The notes beneath the pieces are model-generated. The model saw nothing but the letters and a program-made list of their open reading frames with translations. It did no database searches and was not told where the DNA came from. From Nitrososphaerota archaeon (GTDB lineage Archaea; Thermoproteota; Nitrososphaeria; Conexivisphaerales; UBA164): a stretch of DNA of 55,329 nt. The position numbers and the translations under genes are program-made. The DNA lies in contig JAFLXO010000005.1 in the NCBI GenBank assembly GCA_029786595.1, positions 4,652 to 59,980 of the forward strand, in the 5' to 3' direction. Shown here piece after piece: positions 4,800-52,763 of this stretch; position 1 is the stretch's first letter, and every line of letters begins with the position of its first letter.

Positions 4800-5859
4800 C
4801 GGGACTCCCCTCAGAAGTTACTTCGACATTTTTTTCTGAAACCTTCCACTCAGATTTTAGTCGGGTTGGAGAGTCGCTGAAAAGCGAGTATGATCTGCAT
4901 GCCGCGATGAGCTGTTTTAGCTCCCCCAGTGGGTCCGGAAATTTATAGCCTGTCGATTCGACCACCGTAAAGTCACATGAAGTCCTTAGGCGGAGTCCCC
5001 TGTTAAGGAACCCCCTAACCTTGTATAAAGTTAGCAGGTAGAGCAATTTCCCTATGCTGTCCTTCTTGCTTTCGTTTCCATCAGCTATCATATCAGCATA
5101 GCTCCTGATGAGTGAAAGGTCAATGTTGAAGTAGGCCCTTATGCTTTTTGCGGTGTATTCGGTCCTAGAATATGGAACCATCTGAGAACCGTCCTTGACC
5201 TTTACTTTGTCGACCGGCGCCAGTTCACCGGACGAATCGAACGGATTCTTCTTCAAGCCTCCCGATTCTACAGGACGTACATCTTCCGCTTCGATAAATG
5301 CAGAAACTGCCCTTGGCATCTTTATCTTCCCATCTTCTATGTTGGAAAAGAAAACTCCATGCAGCAGGGTGTTTGGATCATATTTGAATAGGACCTGAGC
5401 TATCTTCTTCCAGTTTGGCAAGGATTTCCTATCATACTCGAACTCATCTTTCAACTCGTCCCCGAAGTGCTTTTCAGAACCATCGCGCTTGCCTACAAGA
5501 ATGAAGTGTGAATTAAGTCGGTGCGGTTCCGTTAGACTGCTTGTATGAGTAAGAAGTGGAGCTGTATCATTTTTATCTTTTTTTATTTGAATGATGGAGA
5601 CCACGTATGGCAGCCCCTGAAGTTCCTGTATAATATTGTAACCATCGGGCCCCACGATAGTTTCTTCAAGCCTGTTTGCCATCGATTGCGATGACTCGAC
5701 GAGCAGCATCTTAGTCCCATCCGGGCGTTCATATGTAGCCGCTCCAATATTTGGAAATCCCGTAGGCTGGAATCGGTCGCCCTGCAATGGTTTTAGTTCC
5801 ACAGAAAAGATATATCTTTCCCCTTGAGGTAAATTCAAGCCTTCCTTGTCTTCAACCAA
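4756..5859 (-). CDS. csb1: Type I-G backbone protein Cas7 (Csb1)
   Basis: RFQPTGFPNIGAA, LLVESSQSMANRLE, EPHRLNS, DPNTLLHGVF and LRLRTSCD motifs. Confidence 0.95.
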   Translation of the reverse strand: MVEDKEGLNLPQGERYIFSVELKPLQGDRFQPTGFPNIGAATYERPDGTKMLLVESSQSMANRLEETIVGPDGYNIIQELQGLPYVVSIIQIKKDKNDTAPLLTHTSSLTEPHRLNSHFILVGKRDGSEKHFGDELKDEFEYDRKSLPNWKKIAQVLFKYDPNTLLHGVFFSNIEDGKIKMPRAVSAFIEAEDVRPVESGGLKKNPFDSSGELAPVDKVKVKDGSQMVPYSRTEYTAKSIRAYFNIDLSLIRSYADMIADGNESKKDSIGKLLYLLTLYKVRGFLNRGLRLRTSCDFTVVESTGYKFPDPLGELKQLIAACRSYSLFSDSPTRLKSEWKVSEKNVEVTSEGSPDESSSDQDDASADN

Positions 5860-5927
5860 GGTCTATCGTATATTATGGAGCCCCCAGTTATATATAGTTT
5901 TAACATTAAATAATTGAACGGCCATGG

Positions 5928-8054
5928 TCAGTACGATGATGGGAACGATATCAGCCTGTTAGCGTGTTGTAGAAAGCGCCTCCGATCAACCGGTATGAGC
6001 ATAGCGGCGGCAAGGCGCTTCCCTTCTATTTTATCCGGATCGAACCCTGAAACTTTGGCTTGAGAATAGGCTAGCCTCCTGCGGACGGCCTCGCAAGCGT
6101 CATATATCCTGCCTGCCGAAAGGAGCTGTGTAATTTCGTACCTACCTTTGATTTGCACACCTCCGGGGAGTTCGCTTGGCATAAATGCAGTTTTGATGAG
6201 CACGTAGGTGGGTAATACAGGCCGTTGTTGCATTGGGGTGAGCCACCTGCCCTGAATTTCCCGTATTCTGTGCCTGTCCCATTTTAGGCTGATTAGCCCA
6301 AGTAAAAGATCTTCAAGCAGTTCATCATCGGTTTCTGCTAGCATAAATGACATTACATCCTGTGGATCAACTACTAAATCACCTTCAAGACTGGCGGGTT
6401 TTCCTTCGCCCGTCTTATCCATAAATATCCGTTTCTGCAGGACGTTCAGAAGGCGGTCGGACAAGCTGTTTCCATACCACGCAATTGAACTGCTACTGTC
6501 AATCCACTTATTTTCATCGACTGGCAAGATGTTTGCTGAAATGGGAGCCCTTGGCGACAGTGAGGCTAGTGATGCGGCCAGTCTGAGTTCAACGGAGTCC
6601 TCTAACTGTTGAAGCCACTCCAGCCATTTTAAACTCAGAAAACGAGGGGGCTTGCTTGGTACATCCCTTCCTTTTATCCTGTAGGGACCATTTTCAAAGC
6701 GACGCACAAGCGACCCTAGGCCGGTTACGACATTCACCATGCCTTGATCCTGTTCGAACGCACGATGGACAGAAGCGTTTAGATTAGCCACTTCATTCTG
6801 TATGGAGGCAGGCGCAGATCCCACCCTCAGGTTTCTGTTAAGTTCATTTAAAAATGGAAGCACTTCCTTAATGGTATCAGCCATGCTCCTGTGCCTGACA
6901 TCTACCGTTCCAAGTGGTACCGCCAGCCGCGCGTCCCCTCTTCTGACGTAGAGGCCATATTTCGAGAACCTGTTTACCCCTACGTCCACTCCAAGAGAGG
7001 AAATCGCATATGAGAATTCCAAGGAGGTTCTCGCGTCCCTCAGACCAAAACCAGGTTGCCTTATACTTGTTCGGCCCTCCTTAAAGAAGGATCTGATTTC
7101 ATCGTATGTGGCATGTTCTACCCATATAGGTGCCCATATTTCATTTCCCTTCGCGGCGTCCTCTGCGACCGTTTCTCCACCCGTAGGAACTGATTCCACC
7201 GTAAATGGAAAGGCCGAAAGCGCCTTTCCACTCCTCTTCGTTAAACCCCCTGAGAGCATGATCAAGCCTTCAAACATCAATATTATATCCCATGGATTAA
7301 CCGGGGTGACGTCCTTGGCTTCCTGGTCAGGCATGCTAAGCTGGTTGATTCCACCTACTCTTTCTGGGTCATAAAAGCCTGATTTTAATTTCGACCCAGC
7401 TGCTGTATTTGGCGCTAACCCGTATAGAGCATGTCTTAGTAACTCCCCTTGCTCAGTTGAAGTAAACCCCTCAAACGTTGATTCCAAGGCCCTTATGAAG
7501 ACCAACGAAAGCTCTAGCCGTCCGTCGTTCCCGCCGCTTCCAAGCAGCGGGGCATATTGTATTTTGTTACCTATTACGCAGACTGCGTCGATCCATTCCA
7601 CAGCTGATTCTGAAAGATTGTTGCGGCACCACCTGATTGTAATATCTTTATTGCCGCCTTCCTTTTTTGTTTTCCCTTTGTTTTTACCCTCTTTTTCATC
7701 TTTGGCTTTCTTTATTTCCTTGTCCGATATAGCCCGGAATATCCTTTCAATGTCATCCCGATATATATCAAATCTCTTATCACGATTTACCATTATCCAA
7801 TTTATTTCTTTGTCCAGTTTGAAGAAGCCACTCCCGTTGTTCCATGGCGATAGGATGGATGTTGGGCTGTATTCTTTTAGTAGAAAGGCTTCAATATCAG
7901 AGCTGCTGAAGGTCGTCTCTATCCTGAAGGCGTCATCAATCCACCACCCCGTGACGTTCGGGTCCTTTTGCTCGGCCACCAGCCTGAATACCCCCAAGGC
8001 TTTAAGATAGGAAGCTAATGGCTCGGTCCTGCAACCTTTCAGGTCGATTATCAA
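5928..8054 (-). CDS. csx17: Type I-G large subunit Cas8g (Csx17)
   Basis: L.GCR.EPLASYLKALGVFRLVAEQKDP, SPWNNGSGF, LLGSGGNDGRLE, NPWD.ILMFEG, FPFTV and EIWAPIW motifs. Confidence 0.95.
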   Translation of the reverse strand: MIIDLKGCRTEPLASYLKALGVFRLVAEQKDPNVTGWWIDDAFRIETTFSSSDIEAFLLKEYSPTSILSPWNNGSGFFKLDKEINWIMVNRDKRFDIYRDDIERIFRAISDKEIKKAKDEKEGKNKGKTKKEGGNKDITIRWCRNNLSESAVEWIDAVCVIGNKIQYAPLLGSGGNDGRLELSLVFIRALESTFEGFTSTEQGELLRHALYGLAPNTAAGSKLKSGFYDPERVGGINQLSMPDQEAKDVTPVNPWDIILMFEGLIMLSGGLTKRSGKALSAFPFTVESVPTGGETVAEDAAKGNEIWAPIWVEHATYDEIRSFFKEGRTSIRQPGFGLRDARTSLEFSYAISSLGVDVGVNRFSKYGLYVRRGDARLAVPLGTVDVRHRSMADTIKEVLPFLNELNRNLRVGSAPASIQNEVANLNASVHRAFEQDQGMVNVVTGLGSLVRRFENGPYRIKGRDVPSKPPRFLSLKWLEWLQQLEDSVELRLAASLASLSPRAPISANILPVDENKWIDSSSSIAWYGNSLSDRLLNVLQKRIFMDKTGEGKPASLEGDLVVDPQDVMSFMLAETDDELLEDLLLGLISLKWDRHRIREIQGRWLTPMQQRPVLPTYVLIKTAFMPSELPGGVQIKGRYEITQLLSAGRIYDACEAVRRRLAYSQAKVSGFDPDKIEGKRLAAAMLIPVDRRRFLQHANRLISFPSSY

Positions 8055-10429
8055 TTTAGCCCCCCGCTCGCCCTGCCATCAGCGGCTCTTAGCAAGGCTT
8101 CATAGAATGCAAGCCTAAATGGACCGTATCTTTTAAGCAGTGTGCCGGTTCTTGAACGCCAGCTGCTCTGGCCGAACCCCATAATCGAGAGGTTTAATAT
8201 TGTTCCTGGCATGGAAAACCCGTTAACGGTCAAGCTTGGCACATAATCCCCATCCCAGACACCTAGTGCGAATTTTTCGTTTTTTTCGGGCACCAATTCG
8301 CCTGGCACGGATCTTACCGTCAGTCTCACTTTTCCATGGTGGGCGGCTGCTAAATATGCCACCAGATCATTTGAAAGGCCGTTCTCAAGAATTAGCAGTG
8401 CCGAGACAAGTTCGTGTCTGAAATACTTTCTTTTATCAGGATATGTTTCATTTTGGTTATGCCATTTATCCTTTGGAGCCTTGGCGTATAATTTATCCGG
8501 CGATGGCTTATCCTTCATTTTTGCCTGGAAAGCAGGATGCGCCTTGCCTGCATCGTGCCACATAGCAGCCGCTATAAGGTCTTCTTTTGATGTTTTGACA
8601 CCGACTTCTTCACATAGCTCTCTGGTCTTCTGTGCTACTTCCAACAAATGTTCAGAAATGAGCTTCCATCCTCCCGCCGAGGAAGGATCGCTTGGGTATC
8701 CCCCTAGCGTACTTTCACCAACAGAAAGATCCTCGACTGGTGGCTTGGATGAAGGGTCCCACCCAGTGAGCGTGCTGTAACCCCCCTCTGTAGCGTCCAG
8801 CATAACCACCATGCCCGGGTACCAGGCTACAGGCTTCCTCCATTCCCCTTCTAACGGGTCAAAGTCAAGGGCATTGTGCTTCTCTGACCACTGCCTGACT
8901 TCATCAACAGGAGCTGGACAGAGCTCTTCCCGGCTAGGTTGCACAACGGGCTTCCTTTGTCCCTTCCAGAAATCCTTTGGCTGGCGCCGCCAAAAGACAT
9001 ATGCTAGGTAATCGTTCCCGCTGCGTATGAACCTTGATACATCGGTATTCCTTCCCATGAGGTCCGGCGTGGTATCAAAGAGTTCAATTATATCCTTACG
9101 CCTTATGACATCTCTATGTTTGAACTCTAGCTCAAGCTTGCTCATCTGTATTGGCGACACTTCTGTAAACCCCTTAAGGCGCTCTTCTGCCTCCCTGATT
9201 GCGCTTTCACTATATGGCGCATATGAATTCCTTTGCCCGCCTGGAAGGCGGATCAGGTAGACCGTTGACCTGCTATCGTTGCCCTCCCTGTTACATCTGC
9301 CCATCCTTTGGATAATTGAGGCCAGCGGAGCGAGCTCGGTAAACATTGTTACCGCTGAAATATCCATACCTGCCTCGATCACCTGCGTGCTTACAACTAT
9401 TAGATTGCTGGTCTTATCCAGCAGACGCTTGAGCTTTAGCTGTCTATCCGCAGGCCTGAAGTGTGAATGTAACAGCATTACAGCAGGGCCATCGCGTTTC
9501 CTCAATATACCATCTAGGGCTCTGTAGAGGCCGAGGCTCCTACTAACGGTGTTCAAGACCACTAAGGTCTTTGTACCCATTATATGCCTACTGATTATCT
9601 CTTCGGCGAGCTTGTCATAGTCCTTGGTTGTGCTTTGAGCATATGCCAGCTTTTTAGGAGCAAACATACGCTTTTGTAGCTCGGTAGACATCGGGTCCGA
9701 AAGGTCCGAAGTATCCAACTCAAGCGTTTCTATACCTTCACCATTAAAGTCTCTAGTTGTGAGCCATTTTTTTCGGAGGGTGGCGCTCATCCAAATACTT
9801 TCGGTTTGAGCTTCAGTGCCTATCTGCCTCCTGAAGGCCTCCAATTGGATGGATGTAGCTAATCCGCTATCCATCAATTGGACTTCATCAAACACCCACC
9901 TACAGTCATTATTAAGTAACCCGAATTGCATTGGCCACCTGAACCTGCTCATGGCGTAGCCACGGTTAAGAGCGCGGGAAAGAAGCATATCCTGCGTGCC
10001 TATTATTACAATGTCATCTTCTGGATAGATATCCCAATCGTTCGCCTCTTCACCACCCATAAGAGTGACTATTGACACCTTTTTCTTGCCGTGGTCAATT
10101 AAATCGGTGGCCTTGGTTAGGTTACTTAGCCATTGTTGTATGTTATCTCTAGTCTGTTCAACCAATGTGCGCAACGGTAGGCAGTAAACCAGTCTTCTGG
10201 GTGTTGAATTTCTCACCCCTCCGTCATCGGTATACCTGCGTTGCCACAACCATGAAAGGAAAATGGCTGCAGTTTTACCCCCACCCGTAGGTATACTTAT
10301 CAAATCATACTTCCTTTTGGATAACATTACCTGATATTTGAACGGGTTTTTGCCCTCAGTAGCCTGATAGAAAAAATTCCTGAAATTTTTATCGGCTACA
10401 TCCTCACTCATTGTGTATCTGCATTCCAT
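8051..10429 (-). CDS. cas3: Type I-G Cas3 helicase with C-terminal HD nuclease
   Basis: PTGGGKT, DEVQ, MSAT, STQVIEAGMD, QRMGRCNR, then an HD domain (EHL, WHDAGKAH, RHE, HHG, AD.RAS) at the C-terminus as in type I-G. Confidence 0.97.
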   Translation of the reverse strand: MECRYTMSEDVADKNFRNFFYQATEGKNPFKYQVMLSKRKYDLISIPTGGGKTAAIFLSWLWQRRYTDDGGVRNSTPRRLVYCLPLRTLVEQTRDNIQQWLSNLTKATDLIDHGKKKVSIVTLMGGEEANDWDIYPEDDIVIIGTQDMLLSRALNRGYAMSRFRWPMQFGLLNNDCRWVFDEVQLMDSGLATSIQLEAFRRQIGTEAQTESIWMSATLRKKWLTTRDFNGEGIETLELDTSDLSDPMSTELQKRMFAPKKLAYAQSTTKDYDKLAEEIISRHIMGTKTLVVLNTVSRSLGLYRALDGILRKRDGPAVMLLHSHFRPADRQLKLKRLLDKTSNLIVVSTQVIEAGMDISAVTMFTELAPLASIIQRMGRCNREGNDSRSTVYLIRLPGGQRNSYAPYSESAIREAEERLKGFTEVSPIQMSKLELEFKHRDVIRRKDIIELFDTTPDLMGRNTDVSRFIRSGNDYLAYVFWRRQPKDFWKGQRKPVVQPSREELCPAPVDEVRQWSEKHNALDFDPLEGEWRKPVAWYPGMVVMLDATEGGYSTLTGWDPSSKPPVEDLSVGESTLGGYPSDPSSAGGWKLISEHLLEVAQKTRELCEEVGVKTSKEDLIAAAMWHDAGKAHPAFQAKMKDKPSPDKLYAKAPKDKWHNQNETYPDKRKYFRHELVSALLILENGLSNDLVAYLAAAHHGKVRLTVRSVPGELVPEKNEKFALGVWDGDYVPSLTVNGFSMPGTILNLSIMGFGQSSWRSRTGTLLKRYGPFRLAFYEALLRAADGRASGGLN

Positions 10430-40617: not shown

Positions 40618-42687
40618 TTAAGTATTAGGGCTTGTAGCACCCATATACCCACCGTTTGTATTAAAAACCGCATTAGCATAAGATATACCTGTATTGCCGA
40701 TTGGATTGTTCACAGTATATGAATAATACCCATTACTAGCGGTTACAGTGTAGCCGGTCGCTAAATGCCCGCCGCCGCCATTATCGAAATATACAGTTAT
40801 TGTTTGCCCGCCCAGCCCTGCGCCATTATCGGATGTAGTTAGATATCCGTAAATCGTGTATGTACCAACGCCGGTGGTGAAGCCGGCACTCAATCCAGTT
40901 GGCGTGTAGTATGCCGCCGTAACGCTGGCCGTACCACCGGAACCAACTGATACAGAAGAAGGCGCACTGTATACACTCAAACCGTATTGTGAGTTACTAT
41001 AGGAAATCGAATATGTGCCCGGCGGCACCCAAGCTACGGCATCACTCCCACCACTATATACTAACTGTTTCCCGTTAGAAAGCGTAGCGGTAGAAATTGC
41101 GGTCGCCCCAGTGCCATAATCCTGCGATGAGTAGAATATTTCACCATCTTCACCAAAGTTCGCGCCGATCGAAGTTGGTGAGTATATGTTGAACTGGTAT
41201 GGATTGCCGCCCGAAACACCAGTCCACGATGAAAAATACCAATTTGTAGATGGGTACGCCGTCACCGTCACCAGCGTGCTCTCATTATACCAGCCACCGC
41301 CAGATACAGAACCAGAGCCAGAGTTCACATACGCATTCACGTAAAGCTGTGTGGTGTATGAAGCCGTGATGGTGGTGGAACCGTAGATGGTTTGCGAACC
41401 GCTCGAAGGATTCGGATTCACATACTGCACTCCGGAGCCGCCGCTGAAAGAGCTCCCGAAAGTATAGGTTATCGTGCTTCCGTAGTTGACCGTAACGCTG
41501 TAAGGCGTGGTTCCAGAACCGTAGTTCGTGGATACAGGTGCACCGCTGACCGGATTTGACTGGAACGTGACTGAATAGGAGTTAATGCCAAAGTTCGCGT
41601 ATATAGAGTTGGGCCCGTTCATGGTGACAGAATAGGTTGAACCAGTATTGCCGTTAGACCAATCGATGAAGTGCCATCCGCCTGCTGGAGATTCTGAGGC
41701 TGTTGCAGTGGAGCCAGCGTTGTACCAGCCGGAGCCGGATACGGAGCCTGAGCCGCTGGCTATGCCCACGGTAAAGTAGTACTGGAGCTGGTATGCTGCG
41801 GTTATGGATCCGCTGCCGGTTACTGTGAACGAGCCTGATTGCGAAGATGATAATCCGGTTGTGCTTTCCCATACATATTGCGCTCCTGAGCCGCCGGAGA
41901 CAGGGGATATCCATGAGAATGAGTGGGTTGTACCCTCCTGCCAGGTGAAGCTGATTGGCAATTGTGAATATGTGTACGGGTTGCCATCCACTGTTAGCAC
42001 TGTGCCGCTTGCGCTTGAACTCATTCCTGTTTGTGCGAATGTTACTGTTGCGTATATTGGGTTGAATGTGGCGGCTTCTGTTATGTTAGACCACATGTAC
42101 ACGGAGAACGTCTGATCCGAACCGCTGTAGCTGTACTGCCCCGTCCCTGTCCAGCCGCCCCACGAATAATACTGCGCCGGGGCGGCGGTCAGCGTGACCT
42201 TATCGCCGTAGGTGTAATAATATGTGCCTGGCGCTGGGGTGGTGGACCCGCCAGGGGTAGAAGTGATGGTGAGAGCGTATATATCAACGGTCGGGTTGTT
42301 TATGTCGAAGGGGACGTACCATTCGTTTCCGTAGGACGTCAAAATCGCATACCGGTACGGCGTCTGCAACGTAAAGTTGTAGCTGGAGCCCGGGTACAGC
42401 GTTATGGATTCGTTGATAAACGTGGGCGGGCTGCCGGTGTTCGGGTTCCATACCATTATCTGCGTTATCCTGGCCGTGTACTGCCCGCCGTTCGTGACCT
42501 CAAGGGTGGAGCCGCTGATGGCCATGGACAGGTACTCGGCGTCCTTGTAATGTAACAGGTTCGTAACTTGCTGCTCCTGATACAGGCTGCTGAAGATGCC
42601 CACGGCGAAGAACGAAATGGCCAGCACACACGCTACGGCGATCAACAGCACAAGCAGGCCGGCGAGCATGGAGGAGACAGCCTTCAT
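40618..42687 (-). CDS. Large pilin-like adhesin with repeated InlB-B/Flg_new-like beta modules
   Basis: MKA/VSS class III-like signal; repeated GSGSVSG.GWYN....T.TA.P...W.F..W modules; S/G/T/Y-rich. Confidence 0.85.
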   Translation of the reverse strand: MKAVSSMLAGLLVLLIAVACVLAISFFAVGIFSSLYQEQQVTNLLHYKDAEYLSMAISGSTLEVTNGGQYTARITQIMVWNPNTGSPPTFINESITLYPGSSYNFTLQTPYRYAILTSYGNEWYVPFDINNPTVDIYALTITSTPGGSTTPAPGTYYYTYGDKVTLTAAPAQYYSWGGWTGTGQYSYSGSDQTFSVYMWSNITEAATFNPIYATVTFAQTGMSSSASGTVLTVDGNPYTYSQLPISFTWQEGTTHSFSWISPVSGGSGAQYVWESTTGLSSSQSGSFTVTGSGSITAAYQLQYYFTVGIASGSGSVSGSGWYNAGSTATASESPAGGWHFIDWSNGNTGSTYSVTMNGPNSIYANFGINSYSVTFQSNPVSGAPVSTNYGSGTTPYSVTVNYGSTITYTFGSSFSGGSGVQYVNPNPSSGSQTIYGSTTITASYTTQLYVNAYVNSGSGSVSGGGWYNESTLVTVTAYPSTNWYFSSWTGVSGGNPYQFNIYSPTSIGANFGEDGEIFYSSQDYGTGATAISTATLSNGKQLVYSGGSDAVAWVPPGTYSISYSNSQYGLSVYSAPSSVSVGSGGTASVTAAYYTPTGLSAGFTTGVGTYTIYGYLTTSDNGAGLGGQTITVYFDNGGGGHLATGYTVTASNGYYSYTVNNPIGNTGISYANAVFNTNGGYMGATSPNT

Positions 42688-42735: not shown

Positions 42736-43018
42736 GATGTTTTACATAACCGCTCAACGCCGCTCCTCAGCAGGCAAAGGGTTGGGCTGTGCCCACACCG
42801 CCGGCCATTATTTTTTTACAAACCATGCACAGGGTGGACAGGACCGGGCGGAGCCCTCGTCAAGAAGGAATACATGGACTATCATCTAAAGCAACACTAG
42901 GGCCAGCCTGCGTTTTCCTACCGGATACCTACTTCACATATGGGTTTGAACTTCATGCCCAATATCCTTAAGTGCAATTATTAAAATAACGCCATGTTAA
43001 TTTTATTAAGCGAGCGTC
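42736..43018 (+). repeat. Internally deleted copy of the replicase locus
   Basis: 42736-42847 matches about 48299-48410; 42848-43018 matches 51162-51333 including GALVKKEYM..HLKQH*. Confidence 0.9.
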
Positions 43019-43387
43019 GTAGAATAAAGCCCACAGCCCTTTTTTGCCAACATCATTTAATAAATTTTAGAGGCTTGCCAAGATAAAATTGTTACTTTTA
43101 ATAAGCTGCATTGGTCATTTCAAATGCTTATAATGCTTATTTTTAGCGTTAAAACATCGAACTTTTGAATAATTAAACAAAACACGCTTTATTTCAAATA
43201 ACGTTATTTGAATTCGAGTTCACATAAGTTGATTGACGAACTGCAACTACGCAGATGATGGACATTAAAAACATCCTTTTATAAAAGGATCCTTAACAGG
43301 CAAAGCACGCCCACCGTTAACCTCCGTTTGTTTAAAACCGATATCGCTAATAACGTTTTTAAGCACCCTTAATTTAATTAGCTAGCT

Positions 43388-43951
43388 ATGAGTTATGAAC
43401 CGTACGTGCTTTATTACGGGAGCAATTTTTTTAACAGGGCGAAAAAGGTTTATTCAATAGGCATGCTGGACAAGCCGTTTGGAAAGATCCTTAAAAAATA
43501 CGGAGAAAACTCAACGTTTTTGAATAGAGAGCAGGCTTCTCAGCTGCTCGATTCGTTTTCAAGACAAAGCTCGATAACTGTTTCTAACGCGCAGATCATG
43601 AAAAATCTGTTGGAGGTTCTTTTCCTTCCTACTTCTCTATTGTACAGTTATTTTAAGAAGCTTTCTTTTGCGGAAGCACACGAATTAGATGATCTTATTG
43701 TAATGGAGTTCATGGGGTCCCAGACAAAGCCTTTCAAGCTTACTCCGCTTTTAATTTACATGTGGTTCTTAATCCCAAAATCCGAAGAGGGATACACGCA
43801 TTCTATCAATTTGATGAAGAGAATAAAGGACGATGTAGGGGTCCCCCCAATCGATAAGGAGGAATGGGACGATCTAAAACCATTGATCGAAAAATTCTCC
43901 AGAGCGCTGCCTGTTCGCGGGTCAGCGGAAAACCTGTGGGAAAAGCTTTAA
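43388..43951 (+). CDS. Hypothetical cytoplasmic protein
   Basis: 187-aa ORF with TTTTTAAG about 25 bp upstream; no recognised motif. Confidence 0.75.
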   Translation: MSYEPYVLYYGSNFFNRAKKVYSIGMLDKPFGKILKKYGENSTFLNREQASQLLDSFSRQSSITVSNAQIMKNLLEVLFLPTSLLYSYFKKLSFAEAHELDDLIVMEFMGSQTKPFKLTPLLIYMWFLIPKSEEGYTHSINLMKRIKDDVGVPPIDKEEWDDLKPLIEKFSRALPVRGSAENLWEKL

Positions 43952-44579
43952 GATCGATTCCTTGTTTTAAATCGTTAAACGTATAAGGCCGCTTATCGTA
44001 CGGCCTGTTTAATCTGAAAGCATAGCAGGATTTTGTCCTCCAGCCTTGAGCTGACCATGGATCTTAAATTACCTTGGATTACCCTTCTTTTTCGTTTTTT
44101 AAAACGCCCGATCAAAGGCGCATTAAGGGTACAGTCAGCGTACTTGGCGGCGTAGCCTACCAATGCAAGCATTTTGACGTCCTCCCCTTGTAAGCCTTGG
44201 CGGCCATGTACCTTCCGTAAAGCCATATCATTAAAAAAAGCAGGAAGGGCTCTAGGAACGGCATAAAAAACAGTATTATATCTAAAATTGTACCCGCTAT
44301 GCCAGGGGATATGGCCTGCAGCTAATGGAATTTAATTTCTTTATCTTTCTGCCCCTCATTTTTGAACGATGTTATGCCCGTAAGCCGGATTAGGATGTAT
44401 ACGAAATACACATTATGTTGCCTTTCCATACATGTTAATTTTATTTTATTTATTAATAATGAACATCACTGCGGCGCAGGATAACTAGCTAAAAGATCAG
44501 AACGGTATCTAAAAAATTACCTGTTTCATTAAGCTTTTTGAAAGCGTCTGCGTATAAGACCGTTTGAAATTTCTTAAAT

Positions 44580-45320
44580 TCAAACGGTAACTTTCTGCTG
44601 CAGATTGGAGGTCTGCCCGTCGAGATAAATCGCATAGTAGCTAACATATACGCTCTGGCCAGAACTAAGTGACGTGACGTTTGACAGTGTCCCAGTGTAG
44701 CTCTGCCCAGGTTTAAGGTCTGTCAAATCTATCTGATAGGTTTGTCCGCCAGAGATCAAATGCGCCTGCGCGTACATTATTTCATCAGTGCCATTGTTAT
44801 AAAAGGTAACAGCCCAGGTTGCCAAAGAGCTGCCGGATGTCAAGCTTATTTTATCGCTTTTAACAAGAAATGAATCATTAACGGGACCCAGCTCAGTCAG
44901 GGTTATAGATTTATTGAAGCTTTGATAGGCACCGTTTGTAAAGTATATTTTTATATTGGACGTATACTGTTGACCGTAGTAAACAGTTATAGAAGGTCCA
45001 GTTGTATACGCTGCTATCATACCAGCGCTGACCGGGCCAACATATATCATTGTTTGAAGAAGGGCTGTGCCGTTATAGAGTTCCGAAGTAATGTTTTCAA
45101 TGCTAATTGTACCTGTATTTTTTACAGTTATTGTCTGTGCAGCATTAGACGTAGTAGCCGCTAAAGTATCGTTTAAAATTTCTGCCGAATATGAAACCGC
45201 TGGTTGGCCGTTTGAGCCTTTATTATTCAAGCTTCCTGATCTGTATGTATTTTCAACGAATGCTGCCGCTATTAAAACCAGCACAACCACTATTATAATA
45301 GTTAATGTCTTAACTTTCAT
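44580..45320 (-). CDS. Membrane-anchored surface protein with two pilin/Ig-like domains
   Basis: N-terminal TM helix; duplicated TVKNTGT / TFYNNGT modules; many sequons. Confidence 0.8.
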   Translation of the reverse strand: MKVKTLTIIIVVVLVLIAAAFVENTYRSGSLNNKGSNGQPAVSYSAEILNDTLAATTSNAAQTITVKNTGTISIENITSELYNGTALLQTMIYVGPVSAGMIAAYTTGPSITVYYGQQYTSNIKIYFTNGAYQSFNKSITLTELGPVNDSFLVKSDKISLTSGSSLATWAVTFYNNGTDEIMYAQAHLISGGQTYQIDLTDLKPGQSYTGTLSNVTSLSSGQSVYVSYYAIYLDGQTSNLQQKVTV

Positions 45321-45517
45321 ACGACCAATTTTATTTTGGGATATTTAAAAATTTTTTGCCCCTTTGGGCCTTGGAAAACGGTTGCAGATTATCAGCCCAG
45401 CGCGGGCCTGGGTTAGAACGGCGCAGATCAGCCCCATCCAATATACGCATATCCGGGGCACAGCGTTCAAAGGACACGGTCTATCGATCGATCAAGCAAA
45501 CAAATGATGTACGGAAA

Positions 45518-45637
45518 TTTACCGCTAAATTGAAGGTGTAAAAATCAGAGGAGGGGGTTATGTAAAACATTATCAGGATGTTTTACATGACCCGCTGAAC
45601 GCCGCTCCTCAGCAGGCAAAGGGTTAGGCGGTGCCCA
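45518..45637 (+). repeat. 120-bp direct repeat (left copy) containing a 16-7-16 palindrome
   Basis: Four mismatches versus 48240-48359 by manual alignment; GGGTTATGTAAAACAT-TATCAGG-ATGTTTTACATGACCC at 45555-45593. Confidence 0.95.
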
Positions 45638-46243
45638 GAGGATGCTCCAAAAAACGCTTAGGTAGGTAAAAACGTTTGCAAATCGTTGAGCTGCGCCAAA
45701 TATCAAGAGTTTCAATGCTATCAATGGTTTTCCATTTTCCATTGCTCTAACTTTTTTGCCCTATTTAACCCCCTACTCCTATTTCCCTTTGCCTCGGGGA
45801 GCAAGATGTAATTTTAATGAAAGGATGAGGTAATTATACGGAGCTTGAATGGGGATGGAAAGTCAGAAGAAGGGAGTATGGAAAAGCGTTGATATCCTTG
45901 ATACCTTGATGTTTGGGCTGCGCCCGCCTTCTGGCACAGTACCATATACCGTGTATTCTTCTTATTATTGATCGTCCTATTGATATTATGCGCCGAGTAT
46001 GCCCTATATTTTTCAGGGCGGCGGTGCGCGAGCTTGGGACATATGCCCTGTAGCTATCACGCCGCTGGTGATAGAAGACCTTTACCGTCAGACCTGAAAT
46101 ATGTCTGAGGCCTTCAATAGTGAAGGTGTGTACGGGCCTTAGGTAATGGCTGCTCCAGAACATGCGTTAAATTTTTTTACAAACCTCAAACCAACTCGCC
46201 AGTTAATGAAGCATTTATATAAGAATGGATATATATAGGAATT

Positions 46244-46963
46244 ATGTGCTTAGGTAACGGTCAAGAAGCACTTCATCAGAATGTATCTGACGGGGAATTT
46301 TTTAATAAAATTGATGTAACAAAGGGGGAACTTGAAAGGAAGTTGGAAAAGTACAAGGCAGAGGAGGTTTATGCTTACATAGTACAATCTGTTGAATATG
46401 ACGGGTCAAAATTTTTACAGGCTGCCACAGGGCCGAACTTTGAAGGAGGGATAATAACTCTGTGTACATGTAAGCATAGGATGCGAGCCAGCAGTAGAAA
46501 GGTGAAAGAAGGATGGAAGTCAACCTGGATAGCGGGCTTTACGGGCCAACGCTTATTCAGGGATGGGCGGAATTATCTGTTCTATCTGATGCGCGTGGGG
46601 GAAGCGTTTCCGTCACAGAAAGCCCTTTGGGACAGCCTGGATACACATACACGGGAAGTGAAGAACGCTCTACATAACCCACTGGGCGACCTGTATCAAC
46701 CCAAGCCGTCCCCTGAATTTAAGAGTGAATATGAATGGGGCAGTTACTATGAACCCTGCAAGGACCATGATCACCGTAAGGATGGTATATGGAAAGGCGA
46801 TATAGATTATAAAGGTTTACACCCTTCCCTATTGCTCGGGGAAAAGGATAACAGCTACCTGTGGTTTGATAAGAGTAGGGCCCCAAGCTACAAAGGCGAC
46901 GGAAAGCAGTTCCGGCAGAAGAAATTCAATAGCTTGGAGGCATTCCTCAGGGAGCTCAGATAA
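46244..46963 (+). CDS. Nmad2-like protein (nucleotide modification associated domain 2)
   Basis: YAYIV...GPNFEGG.ITLCTCKH.MR...WIAGF...LFYLMRV...N..GD.Y...H..D pattern; TTTATATA upstream. Confidence 0.75.
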   Translation: MCLGNGQEALHQNVSDGEFFNKIDVTKGELERKLEKYKAEEVYAYIVQSVEYDGSKFLQAATGPNFEGGIITLCTCKHRMRASSRKVKEGWKSTWIAGFTGQRLFRDGRNYLFYLMRVGEAFPSQKALWDSLDTHTREVKNALHNPLGDLYQPKPSPEFKSEYEWGSYYEPCKDHDHRKDGIWKGDIDYKGLHPSLLLGEKDNSYLWFDKSRAPSYKGDGKQFRQKKFNSLEAFLRELR

Positions 46964-46977
46964 TCTGTGTCACGGAC

Positions 46978-47643
46978 ATGTCATGCATACTGATCAATGT
47001 CGGGTCCGGAGGGTCTAATCCGAACGGCAGGGGGAGAATATTTGATGACGGAACCTATGAATACCTGCCACTTCCGGAGCAGGAAAGGACCAGTGAGAAA
47101 ATTCCCACTTACAGGGACATCGGGTTCGAAAAGGTAAAATTCCCTGATATTGCAGTTCACCTTGACCCTGAATTCGAGACCTATACATATGGTCATGTCA
47201 TAAGGGGGTTCGGGGACGTAAGGCTCTTCGTGGGTCTCAAAGCCGGCGGCATGCTCGTCTTTTACTCGACCCTTCAGAATGGCCACCATTGGGCACCATA
47301 CATAATAGGGTACTTCTTCGTTGACCGGGCCATAGATTGCAGGAATTTTCAGGCCTCGGATATCTTCGCTCTCAGATCCGAGGGCTTTCAGAATAACGCC
47401 CATCTGAAGAGGATTGACCCTCAGGTTGATTTTCTGGTCAAAGGCGATGATAACTCCAGATTGCTGAAGAAGGCCTTTCGGATGACAGAAACAACGGAGC
47501 CGCTCGCCCTGCGAAAATCATTGAGAAACCTTCTATTCACGCCTAGCGGGCGGGCAATTGGCGACAGAAAACCATGGTACAGGTGGACGCTGATCTGTAA
47601 AAACCCTTCAGAACTCCTACAGGTCATTGCAGAAGACAGTTAA
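46978..47643 (+). CDS. Nmad3-like protein (nucleotide modification associated domain 3)
   Basis: INVG, GRIF.DGTYEYLPLPE, PTY.D, VHLDPEF...TYG, LVFYSTL, IIGYF.V and NNAH.KR motifs. Confidence 0.82.
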   Translation: MSCILINVGSGGSNPNGRGRIFDDGTYEYLPLPEQERTSEKIPTYRDIGFEKVKFPDIAVHLDPEFETYTYGHVIRGFGDVRLFVGLKAGGMLVFYSTLQNGHHWAPYIIGYFFVDRAIDCRNFQASDIFALRSEGFQNNAHLKRIDPQVDFLVKGDDNSRLLKKAFRMTETTEPLALRKSLRNLLFTPSGRAIGDRKPWYRWTLICKNPSELLQVIAEDS

Positions 47644-48239
47644 TATTAGCTTTCCGATTTCATTAACGCATCATTGATGTTTACATCCATGATCGAACAT
47701 AAAGGTTCTAGGTACTTCTGGACATCCAAGGGCGAAGATTGAACATTACCAGTACTCCGAACTAGAATGACCATCTAATCATGCCATAGAAATCGATTCT
47801 TTATTATATAGGGAATGCAGCCATATTGAACCTCATCCACATAAATACAATAATAATAAATCTGGAATATTTGAAAGACAGAAAGCCCTATTTCTTAAGT
47901 TTATAAACTGAGTTGGTTACGAATTAGACTTTGCTTTTGAGAATACCCAGAGGGCACCGTGGGCAGTGCTGCCGACGTAGCTGCTAATTTTTATTTTCTG
48001 CGTTTGGGGGAGCTATAATAAGCTTCATATATATATTGAGCGAGGAACTCAAGCTACTTGGAGTCAGGAAATTTCCTATGACTTCAAAAAGCATATGTAA
48101 TAAAATAGACACATATAAATCATTACTTTACCTTTTTGCAGTTGAATCAAAATTTGGGTCTTTGTTATCTGTGATGATCGCCATGTTCGATGCATAGGAA
48201 GGCAATATCGGAGGAGAGTAATATGGTTTTATGGTGAGG

Positions 48240-48410
48240 TTTACCGCTAAATTGAAGGTGTAAAAATCAGAGGATAGGGTTATGTAAAACATTATCAGGA
48301 TGTTTTACATGACTCGCTCAACGCCGCTCCTCAGCAGGCAAAGGGTTAGGCGGTGCCCACACCGCCAGACATTATTTTTTTGAAAACCATGGACAGGGCG
48401 GACAAGACGG
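48240..48410 (+). repeat. 120-bp direct repeat (right copy, 48240-48359) plus an extension shared with 42736-42847
   Basis: Manual alignment with the 45518 and 42736 copies; palindrome at 48277-48315. Confidence 0.95.
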
Positions 48411-48494
48411 CGCCCAGTATTAATGCTATCAATGTCCTTCCAAATATTTTTCTAAAAACCCCTGACATGGTTGGTTTTCTGGGTAGGGATCAAG

Positions 48495-48701
48495 CGTGTC
48501 AACCCTGTCAACCCTGTCATGGGGTTGGTATACTGTTACCCCCTAACCTTTACTCACCCTATATAAGCTCCCTTTTTTTCTCTTGGTTTGTGTTTAAAAA
48601 CCGCTGTTTTTACATGTGGAATAAGGGGTTTAAATAGGGCAGTGGAAATTTAAGGGGCTACAATATGGCACCCCCCTGACAGCCCTGACAGGGGTGACAC
48701 G
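48495..48701. other. Putative replication origin: inverted triplets of 9-bp-spaced TGTCA iterons flanking an AT-rich core
   Basis: CGTGTCAACCCTGTCAACCCTGTCATGGGG (48495-48524) is an imperfect inverted repeat of CCCCCTGACAGCCCTGACAGGGGTGACACG (48672-48701); immediately upstream of the replicase. Confidence 0.7.
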
Positions 48702-48733
48702 GTCATCCGAACCCCAAGGGCGACCCTGTCATG

Positions 48734-48766
48734 CCTTTTAAGCAAATTTTTGCATGCGTGCGCATG
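48734..48766 (+). promoter_or_regulatory. Shared element promoter, copy 2 (replicase)
   Basis: CCTTTTAAGC-AAATTTTT-GCATG-CGTGCGC-ATG; implies a true start at 48764. Confidence 0.75.
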
Positions 48767-51214
48767 TCGGCCAAGATCGATTTTGACATGGGCCTCAACG
48801 TCATCCCGCTCGAACAGGGGAAAAAGACCCCCGCCGTGGATTGGAAGAATTTTCAAACGCGCCATCTCTCTCAGGAGGAGTTTAATGAGTGGTTCGGGCA
48901 GGACCCGAACCGTAACCATGCGGTGATAGGCGGCGTCACATCCCACAACCTCGTGGTGCTCGATTTTGAGGCGTGGAATGATTTTGTGGCCTTCTTCCCG
49001 GAGTGGGAGAGGCTGGCGAAGACCACCCGCGTCGTGAAGACGCCCCATGGCGGCGCCCATGTATATTATTATACACAGGAGGAGGTCCAGCGCAGGATCA
49101 AGGTGTTTGGCGACAAACATCAGGTTGACGTGTGCGGGTGGGGCGGCTATGTATGCGGGATCGGCACGGTCATCGACCATGCGCTGTGCGACAAAAAGAA
49201 GTGCCACATAGATTCCGGCAAGAGCACGTACGAAGCCGTCGGGACCATGGACATTTCGGTAGTCGGAAAGGGGCTCCTCGCATCTTTCCTTGATCGAGGC
49301 CGGAGGCTGGGCTGGCAGGTTGAGGTGCTGAAGGACACCAGGCCCGAGAGGGACACCTTTGATCACCTGCTCACCGTGGATGGCCGGCTGAACGGCCTCT
49401 TCAACGGCGACATTGAAGGATATGCGTCCCGCTCTGAGGCTGAATTTGCGCTCGTCATAAGGCTGATCAGCTACGGCTTCAGCGATGAGCAGATCAACCG
49501 AATAATGAAAGATTCAAGGATAGGCAAGTGGAACGAGTCCGAACAGTATGCCGAATACACGCTGCGGAAGGCGCACGAATGGATCGTGCGCGATCGCTCC
49601 GTGACTGCGGACGAATCGCCGTCCCTCCTAGGCCTCGGCAACCCCTCGGACGCGGCCGACCACGTCCTCGAGCGCTTTCATATCATCACCACGGACGACG
49701 GCCTGTACGTATACGACGAAGGGCTGGGGATGTACAGGCAGGGGATGGAGAAGGCGATCCAGGCGTGGGCCGAGCAGCAGGCCCGTGTTTCAGGCGGCAA
49801 TATATCACTTCGTTACATTGCTGAAATGTTTGGCCACATACAGCGCAGGACCTATGAGCGCGATATAGCGGACAACACGGATGTGTTCCACCTGAAAAAC
49901 GGCATACTGAACATGAAGACCGGTGAATTTATCGACCACACGCCCGATAAGGCGTATTTCTCCGCAATCCAGCTTCCGGTGAAGTACGACCCGAAGGCGA
50001 AGTGCCCGCTGATATTGAAGTTCATTTCTGAAATCGTCTACCCCGAAGACATCGCCGTCATTCAGGAGTTCACAGGCTACATGTTCTACCGTGGATATCC
50101 GGTGGCAGCTGCGCTGCTGCTCGTGGGCGGCGGCAGCAACGGCAAGTCCACACTGATCAGCCTGATCAAGGCCCTTCTGGGGCCATCGAACATCGCCACG
50201 TGCAGCCTTCAGGAGCTGGAGTACAACCACTTCGCCAAGGCCGACCTCGTGGGCAAGCTTGCTAACCTCTTTGCTGACCTGTCCGACGTGGCGCTGAAGT
50301 CCACGGGGGTGTTCAAGATGCTCACCGGCGGCGACCCGATCACCGCTGAGCGAAAGTACGGCCAGCGGTCCCCGTTCGTGAACTATGCAAAGCTCGTTTT
50401 CAGCGCGAACAAGGTTCCGATGGCATACGACGACAGCGATGCGTTCTTCCGGCGTTTCATCATCGTCAAGTTCCCGATGACGTTCAACAAAAGGACCGCC
50501 GACGCCCGGCTGCTTGAGAAGCTCACGACCGAGGAGGAGCTGTCCGGCCTCCTGAACTGGGGGCTTGAAGGCCTGCGGCGCCTCATGGACAACGGGTTCG
50601 TGTTCTCGAATTCCAAGAGCGTAGAGGAGATAAAGGACGAATACATCAGGATGTCAAACCCTGTGGAGGCGTTTTTCATGGACATGGTGGAGGAGGACCC
50701 GGAGAAGCGCATCGCCAAGGCTGACCTCTATCAGGCGTATGTAAGCTACTGCAAGGCGAGGAAGCTGGCGCCCGTAACTATGCCCACCTTCTTCCTGAAC
50801 GTGAAGAAGAACGGCCGCAACTACAGCGAGACGAGGTTAACATCCGAAGAGAACGGAAGGAAGGTGCGGTACAGCGCCTTTCTGGGGATCGCGCTGAAGT
50901 CCAGCGGTTCAGGTGAGCGGCCTTTAGATGCTACTCCCGTAGTACAACCGGCAAAGGATACGGAACCCGAAGCGGCTAAACCGGAGGCTAGGTCAGAGGC
51001 TAGGTCAGAGGCCAAGCCAGAGGCCAAGTTGGAGGCCAAGCCGGCAGACGAGAGGGCCGCGGAGGCGCCCGATACAGCGCCAGCGAAAACTGATAGCGCC
51101 CCGGGCTTTGATGTGGTCAACGACGTTGCCGCAGGCGTGCAGATATACCGGTGCAGGGAGTGCGGGGCCCTTGTCAAGAAGGAATACATGTCCGACCACC
51201 TGAAGCAGCACTAG
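48764..51214 (+). CDS. Plasmid/virus replicase: AEP primase-polymerase, helical domain, D5/P4-family SF3 helicase and C-terminal C2H2 finger
   Basis: VVLDFE, KTPHGGAHVYY, GGYV (prim-pol); SRSEAEFAL; LKNGILN; GSNGKST Walker A; KLVFSANK, AFFRRF; CRECG...HLKQH. Confidence 0.93.
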   Translation: MSAKIDFDMGLNVIPLEQGKKTPAVDWKNFQTRHLSQEEFNEWFGQDPNRNHAVIGGVTSHNLVVLDFEAWNDFVAFFPEWERLAKTTRVVKTPHGGAHVYYYTQEEVQRRIKVFGDKHQVDVCGWGGYVCGIGTVIDHALCDKKKCHIDSGKSTYEAVGTMDISVVGKGLLASFLDRGRRLGWQVEVLKDTRPERDTFDHLLTVDGRLNGLFNGDIEGYASRSEAEFALVIRLISYGFSDEQINRIMKDSRIGKWNESEQYAEYTLRKAHEWIVRDRSVTADESPSLLGLGNPSDAADHVLERFHIITTDDGLYVYDEGLGMYRQGMEKAIQAWAEQQARVSGGNISLRYIAEMFGHIQRRTYERDIADNTDVFHLKNGILNMKTGEFIDHTPDKAYFSAIQLPVKYDPKAKCPLILKFISEIVYPEDIAVIQEFTGYMFYRGYPVAAALLLVGGGSNGKSTLISLIKALLGPSNIATCSLQELEYNHFAKADLVGKLANLFADLSDVALKSTGVFKMLTGGDPITAERKYGQRSPFVNYAKLVFSANKVPMAYDDSDAFFRRFIIVKFPMTFNKRTADARLLEKLTTEEELSGLLNWGLEGLRRLMDNGFVFSNSKSVEEIKDEYIRMSNPVEAFFMDMVEEDPEKRIAKADLYQAYVSYCKARKLAPVTMPTFFLNVKKNGRNYSETRLTSEENGRKVRYSAFLGIALKSSGSGERPLDATPVVQPAKDTEPEAAKPEARSEARSEAKPEAKLEAKPADERAAEAPDTAPAKTDSAPGFDVVNDVAAGVQIYRCRECGALVKKEYMSDHLKQH
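50981..51040 (+). repeat. Five imperfect 12-bp tandem repeats encoding a (P/S/L)EA(R/K) linker
   Basis: ccggaggctagg tcagaggctagg tcagaggccaag ccagaggccaag ttggaggccaag. Confidence 0.85.
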
Positions 51215-51395
51215 GGACGGCCTGGATTTTCCCACTGGATATATACTTCACATAAGGGTTTGAACTCCATGCCCAATATCCTTATGTGCAATTATTGGCA
51301 TAATGTCATGTTAACTTGATTGAGCGAAGCGTCCAATTTGTCTTGAAATGGATTTCAGGTAAAAATATATAAATTTAATTATGTATTAGGCATCA

Positions 51396-52763
51396 ATGAA
51401 TCTGAAAATAGTAGCCGCTGTATTGATAGTTCTAACAGTAATAGGCTTCTCTGCATTCGCGTATGACCAGTTCTATGTCATACCTTCTCAACAGACGCAG
51501 TTGAACAACGCTGAGGCCAGTATATCTGCCATGGCACAGAGCCTGAGTTCCATGACCGCTGAATTCCAGTCTATAAATTCAAGCCTTTTGAACCTCAGCA
51601 ATGGCCTTTCTGGCGAGCAGTCCGTTATAACCCTACTCAATTCAAGCATAACTTCAGAGAATTCTCAGCTGATAAGCCTGGAGCAGAATCTGATGGAAAC
51701 ACCAAGGATAGGTATAGTCAACCCAGTTTCATTTGAGCAGGCGCCAATCCTGGCAGCGATGAGCGTCCAGGCTTCTGTTAAAATAGATGGATACACGTTC
51801 TGGCTTGGCACTATAGGAAATCACCAGGTAGTAGAGGTAAGGAGCGGAGAGAAGGAATTTGCTTCAGAGCTGGCTACGGTCCTCATGGATACGCATTTCA
51901 ACATTGTCGCAAACATAATGTCCGGAATAGCAGGCTCAAGGAATCCAAATCTCAAAACTGGCGACGTGCTGATAGGCGCGTTCGTGGTAAACCCTGACGC
52001 CATTAAATACTCCTATGACGGAACGCAGATACCCTATACCACCGAAATGGTTACAACGCCAAACTCACTGATAAACGGCACAATAATAACTGGCTACGGA
52101 CAGACCGGCGCTACCCCAAGCGATGCCTCCACATACGGTTATGGCCCGGGAGATAATAATTCGTCATTTCCCTATATCGCAGACTTTGTGGCATCTGCAG
52201 GCCTAGTGCAGATCGCAGAAGGGGCCTCTGGAATACTGGGCTCCACCAGCAATTCATACATAACCGGTAATCCCAATGCAACCGGCACGTCGCCTGCCAA
52301 TGAAATGATCGGCGTTATAAGTTCGTCATCTCACTGGACCAATCCGGTGTCCATCAACGGTGTGCAGAATGCGCTTTACCAGACCGATGCTGGGGAAAAT
52401 GAGGGATTTGGGTTCGCATATGCCAATACGCAACTGGGCATTCCATGGGTCGTGGTCAGGGGCATATCCAACTCTCACTTTGTGCTTAACGTCTTCAAAG
52501 GCACGCTGGCTGCGGACAGGGCTGCGAATGTGACAGTTTACATCATAGATCACTTTAATATGAACGGCATGCTGTATCAGCCTGCAACATTTTCGATGCT
52601 ATCGGGCAATTCCAACGCAGCGATGCACGGGTACATAGTCGCTGATTCAGCAACCTATAATATGACCAATATAACAGTAACTCAGGTGCAGTACACCGCT
52701 CAGAACGGGTCGATCATAACCATAACGAACCCCAATATGTTAGAATATACAGGTCCCAACTGA
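51396..52763 (+). CDS. Membrane-anchored extracellular MTA/SAH nucleosidase-like (PNP_UDP_1) protein on a coiled-coil stalk
   Basis: N-terminal TM, heptad S/L/N stalk, RIGIV...EQ, SGIAGS.NP.L..GDV.I, ENEG.GFA, IPWVVVRGISN. Confidence 0.85.
   Translation: MNLKIVAAVLIVLTVIGFSAFAYDQFYVIPSQQTQLNNAEASISAMAQSLSSMTAEFQSINSSLLNLSNGLSGEQSVITLLNSSITSENSQLISLEQNLMETPRIGIVNPVSFEQAPILAAMSVQASVKIDGYTFWLGTIGNHQVVEVRSGEKEFASELATVLMDTHFNIVANIMSGIAGSRNPNLKTGDVLIGAFVVNPDAIKYSYDGTQIPYTTEMVTTPNSLINGTIITGYGQTGATPSDASTYGYGPGDNNSSFPYIADFVASAGLVQIAEGASGILGSTSNSYITGNPNATGTSPANEMIGVISSSSHWTNPVSINGVQNALYQTDAGENEGFGFAYANTQLGIPWVVVRGISNSHFVLNVFKGTLAADRAANVTVYIIDHFNMNGMLYQPATFSMLSGNSNAAMHGYIVADSATYNMTNITVTQVQYTAQNGSIITITNPNMLEYTGPN

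Follow-up and report, generated by a model that had tools for sequence, protein, structure and literature searches.

A divergent Nmad2 gene and an Nmad3 gene form a self-contained pair, with predicted PUA-like folds, in a repeat-bracketed insert of a Nitrososphaerota archaeon

The stretch of DNA analysed here, called the window, comprises 55,329 nucleotides of a Nitrososphaerota archaeon (assembly GCA_029786595.1, contig JAFLXO010000005.1, forward strand). Its source is a metagenome-assembled genome (MAG) of 1.6 Mb in 110 contigs that is 82.7% complete, and in our contig numbering the window is C66:4652-59980. Two genes on its forward strand form the pair described in this report. Gene A (46244-46963) encodes a protein of 239 amino acids assigned to a divergent, long-form branch of the Nmad2 family, and gene B (46978-47643) encodes an Nmad3 protein of 221 amino acids; both were defined from the list of open reading frames (ORFs), Pfam comparisons (sub-threshold for gene A), homologues and AlphaFold2 models. 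The stop codon of gene A (TAA, 46961-46963) and the ATG of gene B (46978) are separated by a same-strand spacer of 14 nucleotides (46964-46977). Upstream of gene A, a TATA-like box TTTATATAA was read by eye, unscored, at 46214-46222 on the same strand, 22-30 nucleotides 5' of the ATG, and a second, TATATATA, was read in the same way at 46230-46237. The position of TTTATATAA suggests a leaderless or short-leader transcript. An initial annotation, made from the sequence alone, had described two co-oriented genes 14 bp apart with a TATA box of their own and the motifs CTCKH, HLDPEF and NNAH. The ORF coordinates and the sequence bear out this layout, and all three motifs are present on conserved alignment columns. 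At E ≤ 1e-3, 118 database homologues were found for gene B and 142 for gene A, and both genes are full length against these; they are therefore regarded as real genes and not as chance frames. Close homologues exist elsewhere, at 87% identity for gene B (its nearest named homologue, a protein of a Nitrososphaerota archaeon) and at 82% for gene A.

Membership of gene B in the Nmad3 family is clear. The protein matches Pfam PF18754 with 67.4 bits (E 2e-18), above the gathering cut-off of 27, with residues 4-174 aligned to positions 3-198 of the 247-position profile. A genome-level scan with PF18754 repeats the match at 66.2 bits, and the domain is carried by all 118 gene B homologues. The HLDPEF motif begins at residue 61 and NNAH at residue 139, with H61, D63 and H142 retained in 100% of 25 sequences; the full set of invariant residues is Y45, H61, D63, P64, F66, T70, Y71, G72, H142 and R202. 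No family of NCBIfam was found to match either gene.

The assignment of gene A is less direct. Its match to Pfam PF18753 (Nmad2) covers residues 62-123 only and reaches 21.5 bits (E 1.9e-4) against a cut-off of 26.1, and its nearest bacterial relatives score similarly on this profile (25.3 bits for an ORF of locus L078 and 25.6 bits for protein P0293). PF18753 was found on 55 of 120 gene A homologues, by a hand count among the matches listed. With gene A alone as the query, phmmer matched ORFs in loci L041 and L034 (8.8e-5 and 6.2e-6, respectively), of which the L041 ORF is Nmad2 by Pfam (1.3e-37). A core motif is moreover kept across long-form and canonical Nmad2 proteins (G61, P64-N65, T72-L73-C74-x-C76-K77, W95, G98 and G148-D149), so that gene A and canonical Nmad2 have the set GxxPN...TLCxCK...W..G...GD in common. 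Because of these phmmer links and this motif, gene A is, as judged from sequence comparison, a member of a divergent Nmad2 subfamily, homologous through intermediates and not a model-defined member. Its identity to canonical Nmad2 is 18-27%, and in contrast to the canonical proteins the long-form branch is of about 240 amino acids, with its own N-terminal extension of about 40 amino acids and an extra conserved region (H177/W183/D186), and its proteins score under the Pfam cut-off. The branch is large, as 2,069 clusters were retrieved at E ≤ 1e-3, 346 of them at E ≤ 1e-30, when 1.84 billion representatives were searched with a profile. Conserved residues of gene A are Y45, N65, T72, C74, C76, K77, W95, Y114, K140, D149 and D186; the CTCKH motif begins at residue 74, and C74, C76 and K77 are retained in 90-97% of 40 sequences. 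In the ESM Atlas, only unnamed clusters were matched, with a weak cross-hint between Nmad2 and Nmad3 (scores of 0.79 and 0.82, under the lead threshold). The initial annotation had named both families and proposed confirmation with the Pfam profiles: this comparison upholds the Nmad3 part outright, while the Nmad2 part stands only in the modified form of a sub-threshold, divergent subfamily.

The association of the two families was surveyed by a scan with an Nmad3 alignment over one genome per species (~185,000), which gave 442 relatives. The best 79 of the 442 loci were kept and screened by ORF calling and an iterated gene A profile; the pair of this window is not among the 79. Nmad2 lies directly adjacent to Nmad3 on the same strand in 24 of the 79 loci, in the order Nmad2-Nmad3 in twenty and Nmad3-Nmad2 in four. 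Two further loci, both from one Halobacterium genome, encode a fused protein of 523 amino acids in which Nmad3 is followed by Nmad2, and one locus has Nmad2 fragments 5 kb from Nmad3. The other 52 loci have no Nmad2 next to Nmad3, several of their contigs being too short to judge. In a collection of 5.8 billion proteins, the only two longer homologues of gene B were again Nmad3-Nmad2 fusions (P0239 and P0240, of 447 and 433 amino acids), and a scan of metagenome contigs with gene B gave two distant loci only. Since adjacency in either order and independent fusion typically mark proteins that work together, the survey shows, at the level of gene organization, a functional coupling of the Nmad2 and Nmad3 families. 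One other fusion was observed: P0293 (397 amino acids) joins DUF6508 (E 8.6e-33) to a long-form Nmad2, the only fusion partner other than Nmad3 that was seen.

All-against-all clustering of four genes on each side of the pair loci revealed no third gene family that recurs. Elsewhere, the 32 co-oriented immediate neighbours of Nmad3 are unrelated enzymes or proteins without a family, and no hypermodification-enzyme family was found among them. As no third gene is conserved, the pair would represent a complete module and not a remnant, and gene neighbourhoods show the bare pair to be the apparent normal state of this module, with no third conserved gene needed. The earlier description of a stand-alone two-gene unit therefore agrees with what is common elsewhere. 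It had also been considered that homologues might always need further genes that are deleted here, which is not what the loci show. Its remark that no hypermodification enzyme is visible likewise holds, the neighbours including no kinase, aGPT-Pplase, glycosyltransferase or thymidylate-synthase-like gene.

The pair lies in an insert of 2,602 nucleotides (45638-48239), delimited from ORFs, copy number and relatives, which consists of genes A and B and non-coding DNA and holds no other credible gene. Repeat comparison showed it to be bracketed by two direct repeats of 120 nucleotides each, the left (45518-45637) containing a hairpin with an 11-nucleotide stem and the right (48240-48359) being 96.7% identical to it. 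Within the genome, the part of the insert with the two genes occurs only once, whereas pieces of the repeat are also present elsewhere, on contigs C20, C89 and C40, together with copies of a primase gene that is also found beside the insert. The G+C content of the insert (0.44) deviates slightly from that of the genome (0.475). Nmad3 was found in none of forty related genomes (two of the same genus, fourteen of the same family, nineteen of the same order and five of the same class), nineteen of which are at least 90% complete. In the two same-genus genomes the flanks are present at 86-99% identity, with no DNA match to 45640-48370. Because of the direct repeats, the single copy, the lack of Nmad3 in these relatives and the flanks without insert, the pair is concluded to be accessory and to have been acquired recently, as an insert in a mobile region associated with the primase. 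The direct repeats, the neighbouring primase and the strain-specific insert show the initial annotation to have been largely right in describing the pair as mobile-element cargo. In its adjacency the pair resembles other Nmad2-Nmad3 pairs; it differs in having an archaeal host and in lying between direct repeats, in an insert next to a primase. A further dispersed non-coding repeat was observed at the left of the insert, where 230 nucleotides (45699-45926) are 80% identical to intergenic DNA at C29:718-935.

Sequences of the insert were detected in twelve public sequencing runs of three studies, with 82-95% of sampled words present; no RNA run was among those listed. Contigs of three runs cover the insert without differences and break inside the repeats. 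In a fourth run, X13, the pair lies on a contig of 4.9 kb and is ~97% identical there, with 64 differing letters and 11 gaps across 46059-48108; beyond 48108 this contig continues into unlike sequence and has a different right flank. The same run yielded two weak signals: a short contig that runs through 45381-45637 and then, for 19 letters, resembles the sequence following the right repeat, as in an empty site, and a joint from 45598 to 46059 with 22 nucleotides on each side. A scan of viral contigs with the Nmad3 alignment gave 44 pattern matches, none of which was confirmed, and gene A had no tblastn match among 50,697 phage records. In a collection of 72,556 plasmids, tblastn with gene B found four records, at 30-32% identity. 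A solo Nmad3 occupies a conserved chromosomal site in about ten Methanobacteriaceae loci (L013, L015, L018, L020, L023, L033, L035, L038, L045 and L080), where it is flanked by genes for a 4HBT thioesterase, a ferritin-like protein, methionine sulfoxide reductase (MsrA), a HIT protein and a PolX polymerase. These neighbours lie on the opposite strand and form no operon with Nmad3. The neighbourhood has a flavour of oxidative damage.

AlphaFold2 models were obtained with high scores for both proteins: gene A had a predicted local distance difference test (pLDDT) score of 90.2 and a predicted template modelling (pTM) score of 0.89, and gene B had 93.0 and 0.90, respectively. Each model was compared with 48,161 chains, using a tool whose own caution line lies at Z ~8. 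For Nmad3, eighteen chains scored Z of at least 5, and the top 22 were all PUA-like (EVE, YTH, ASCH or McrB-N). The best was the EVE protein PH1033 (1wmm; Z 8.4, root-mean-square deviation (rmsd) 4.3, 135 residues aligned), followed by Rpa0253 and 2ar1 (EVE; Z 8.0), VcaM4I, a modification-dependent endonuclease matched by its EVE domain (Z 7.6), THYN1 in complex with DNA that contains 5-methylcytosine (5mC; Z 7.3), several YTH domains (Z 6.6-7.4), ASCH (Z 7.2) and McrB N-terminal domains (Z 5.8-6.3). YqfB (9kyf), an ASCH-fold enzyme that acts on a modified nucleoside, was among the weaker matches (Z 2.9). Foldseek was in weak agreement, with TgMcrB-N as the best match (E 2e-3). A PUA-like fold is thus well supported for the modelled Nmad3 protein. 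For the Nmad2 model, only 35 chains scored Z of at least 2, with ranks 1-23 almost all PUA-like, and a search of the viral structures in BFVD gave no match at E ≤ 0.001, its top rows being ASCH proteins (E 0.064). Because its list of matches is nearly uniform in fold class, despite low scores, a PUA-like fold is considered probable but unproven for Nmad2.

In EVE, YTH and ASCH proteins, the PUA-like fold accommodates a modified mononucleotide or a flipped-out base that carries a modification, and YTH and EVE reader domains rely on an aromatic cage. The predicted folds match such domains (PH1033, 1wmm; THYN1, 5j3e; VcaM4I, 6yex; YTHDC1; and ZmASCH, 5guq) over most of each domain, at low scores in the case of Nmad2. 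The proteins of genes A and B nevertheless show no detectable sequence similarity to them and are 60-90 residues larger. In contrast to the aromatic cage, the conserved residues are largely polar, being Cys, Lys and Asp in Nmad2 and His, Asp, Glu and Arg in Nmad3. The occurrence of two different PUA-like proteins as a pair is also a feature of Nmad, unlike the EVE, YTH and ASCH domains. The predicted fold fits binding of a modified base.

On balance, we favour with some reserve the view that the pair is a two-protein, self-contained module with PUA-like folds, a heteromer that would bind a modified or damaged nucleobase and probably process it. The Nmad2 and Nmad3 proteins would form the heteromer, and its one or two pockets may bind the nucleobase either in nucleic acid or as a free nucleotide. 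Like YqfB, an amidohydrolase with the ASCH fold, the module would do more than read its ligand and would alter it chemically; such processing is probable in view of the invariant polar residues in each family (C74, C76, K77, D149 and D186 of Nmad2; H61, D63, E65, H142 and R202 of Nmad3). A more specific version is distinctly unlikely: that the pair is a new two-subunit enzyme in which one pocket selects the modified base while the Cys-x-Cys-Lys of Nmad2 and the His/Asp/Glu/His of Nmad3 act on it chemically, e.g. by excising it or removing the modification, and that the 2.7-kb repeat-bracketed unit is an integrase-less mobile cassette spreading stand-alone protection or counter-protection among archaea.

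Several observations weigh against the module as proposed or against its parts. Pfam-detectable Nmad2 is absent from three of five whole genomes with a solo Nmad3, Pfam being weak on the long-form branch. A different family without a Pfam match, of about 215 amino acids (range 165-230), was identified by clustering as an apparent alternative partner, directly upstream of Nmad3 and in the position of Nmad2, in four loci (L026:7411-8010, L051:7510-8004, L057:7372-8019 and L059:7315-8004), which belong to Terriglobia, Aenigmatarchaeota and Heimdallarchaeota genomes. Because of the solo genomes and this alternative family, Nmad2 is not obligatory for Nmad3. With respect to the fold, the best match of the Nmad2 model (YTH 4u8t; Z 5.3, rmsd 3.6, 126 residues aligned) lies under the caution line of the tool, and its best Foldseek match has an E-value of 0.32. 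Profile-profile comparison of Nmad2 with Nmad3 found no similarity, and profile searches against the sequences of solved structures returned nothing meaningful for either family, the best scores being E 0.017 for Nmad3 (the TIR domain of SARM1) and E 3.9 for Nmad2. As regards the insert, the two same-genus genomes without it are only 73-74% complete, and no listed contig spans either repeat, so that its linkage rests on the assembly of the MAG.

The initial annotation had suggested a minimal unit that may recognise modified viral DNA or attack it. In this explanation the pair would be a minimal anti-virus unit on a mobile element, whose PUA-like pockets recognise hypermodified viral DNA, or modified nucleotides set free during infection, and which then attacks this DNA or aborts infection. 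Such a role would agree with the accessory, strain-specific nature of the pair beside a mobile-element primase, and with the use of PUA-like modified-base sensors by restriction enzymes that depend on modification; one of these, VcaM4I, was matched in the structural comparison. Locus L067 (Verrucomicrobiae, 4911-8714) has the pair after co-oriented hsdM and hsdS genes of a type I restriction-modification system, the ORFs overlapping or abutting one another. Two recent reports describe PUA-based defence systems that sense m6-dAMP (bioRxiv 10.1101/2025.11.05.686725 and 10.64898/2026.01.15.699771). Metis, PUA-Cal-HAD and VcaM4I (EVE-HNH) would have in common with the pair a PUA-like pocket as a possible modified-base sensor; these systems are reported to couple the sensor to a clear effector (a nuclease, a phosphatase or a HAD filament), whereas no effector domain is found in the Nmad pair. 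An NMAD domain also appears in the figure legend on validated systems of the DefensePredictor study, and the study names one NMAD among predicted defence domains, but its main text does not state which NMAD family is meant (PMC13092281). Against this role, PADLOC-DB 2.0 contains no family matching either protein at E ≤ 1, and no recognisable effector domain (nuclease, TIR or NTPase) is present or fused. Co-occurrence with defence islands, proposed as a check in the initial annotation, was analysed with 129 neighbour proteins, and convincing defence-type neighbours within three genes were found in only four of the 24 pair loci: hsdM-hsdS directly upstream in L067, PDC-M05A/B in L058, PDC-S26 in L052 and a mad2-like fragment in L046. 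The lack of relatives in the viral contig collection and the 50,697 phage records, and the chromosomal Nmad3 that is vertically kept in Methanobacteriaceae, also speak against it. The proposal of an attack on viral DNA is thus not supported; a role in defence is possible, is not favoured by the tests made here and is considered rather unlikely.

Alternatively, the ligands might be the cell's own: the proteins would bind or process bases that are modified or damaged, whether in RNA, in DNA or in the nucleotide pool, for example in salvage or detoxification of modified nucleosides or in the handling of oxidised bases, the copy here having been captured by the mobile region. The solo Nmad3 beside the MsrA, ferritin-like, HIT and PolX genes of Methanobacteriaceae points in this direction, as do the mostly ordinary metabolic genes that neighbour the pair loci, the match to YqfB among the weaker Nmad3 results, and the wide occurrence of both families in bacteria and archaea. 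However, absence from the forty relatives and a patchy distribution across phyla are typical of accessory genes, and the Methanobacteriaceae neighbours on the opposite strand form no operon; a housekeeping or repair function is accordingly rated as doubtful. Very improbable is the explanation that the pair is a decayed remnant, functionless here, of a larger nucleotide-hypermodification operon. The Pfam names of both families derive from association with modification operons, and no modification enzyme adjoins the pair, as such a remnant would have it. Both genes are nevertheless intact and full length, close homologues exist elsewhere at the identities given above, and the bare pair is the common form, with 24 cases of adjacency, three kinds of fusion and no third gene that is conserved.

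The genes nearest to the pair encode a CARDB protein, an unknown protein of 187 amino acids, a primase-helicase and, 3.7 kb off, a PNP_UDP_1 nucleosidase-like protein. The primase-helicase (48731-51214, forward strand; Pfam and NCBIfam: Prim-Pol, D5_N and DUF5906, with a P4-family primase C-terminal part) serves the neighbouring mobile unit as its replication gene. The genome contains two further copies of this primase (C20:1101-3512 and C89:2-1795), one 83% identical with two TAA stops and the other 87% identical, and in one same-genus genome the primase lies directly beside a homologue of the 37.6-39.7 kb part of the window. Since it is multi-copy here and has this placement in a same-genus genome, the primase element is taken to be active or recently active in the genus. 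Just after it, at 51396-52763, a protein of 455 amino acids is encoded that has a PNP_UDP_1 domain and an N-terminal extension of about 100 amino acids; its matches to methylthioadenosine/S-adenosylhomocysteine (MTA/SAH) nucleosidases are weak, far under the cut-offs, and a same-genus genome has it with 93% conservation. The DefensePredictor report (PMC13092281) lists domains of purine phosphorylases among its predicted defence domains.

A third, partial copy of the repeat (42736-42844; repeat comparison) is joined to a primase remnant (42848-43018), which consists of the last 17 codons of the primase gene (42848-42900) and downstream DNA and is 83% identical to 51162-51333. This copy is fused to the end of the primase as if the primase had been deleted there. 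The region 42736-51333 can thus be described as three units of ~2.7-2.85 kb between copies of a composite repeat (42736-42844, 45420-45637 and 48238-48408): the first contains the gene for the unknown 187-amino acid protein and the CARDB gene, the second the Nmad pair and the third the primase-helicase. Predicted surface or secreted proteins flank the first unit, one of 689 amino acids with Flg_new_2 repeats (40618-42687) and the other the 246-amino acid CARDB protein (44580-45320), which has an N-terminal hydrophobic segment; a near-copy of the 689-amino acid gene adjoins the primase copy on contig C20. An integron-like cassette array was considered and dropped, there being no integrase on the contig, units with promoters of their own and a mixed gene orientation. 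A search limited to PF00589 found no tyrosine recombinase on contig C66 and gave matches on other contigs. No tRNA gene was found in the window by ARAGORN and no RNA family by Rfam.

Both families are already catalogued in Pfam as uncharacterised, and neither Nmad2 nor Nmad3 was found by name in the relevant literature searched. What is new here is an archaeal member of the Nmad2-Nmad3 pair, and by itself the archaeal copy reveals no new mechanism. The families are nonetheless widespread, as seen from the 442 of ~185,000 species genomes with Nmad3 and the 2,069 representative clusters of long-form Nmad2. Self-sufficiency, repeated fusion, a predicted modified-base-reader fold and invariant polar residues together narrow the hypotheses on their function to testable ones. 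The pair is compact and experimentally tractable, and its archaeal copy would provide a clean natural case in which a small insert moves the pair without further genes.

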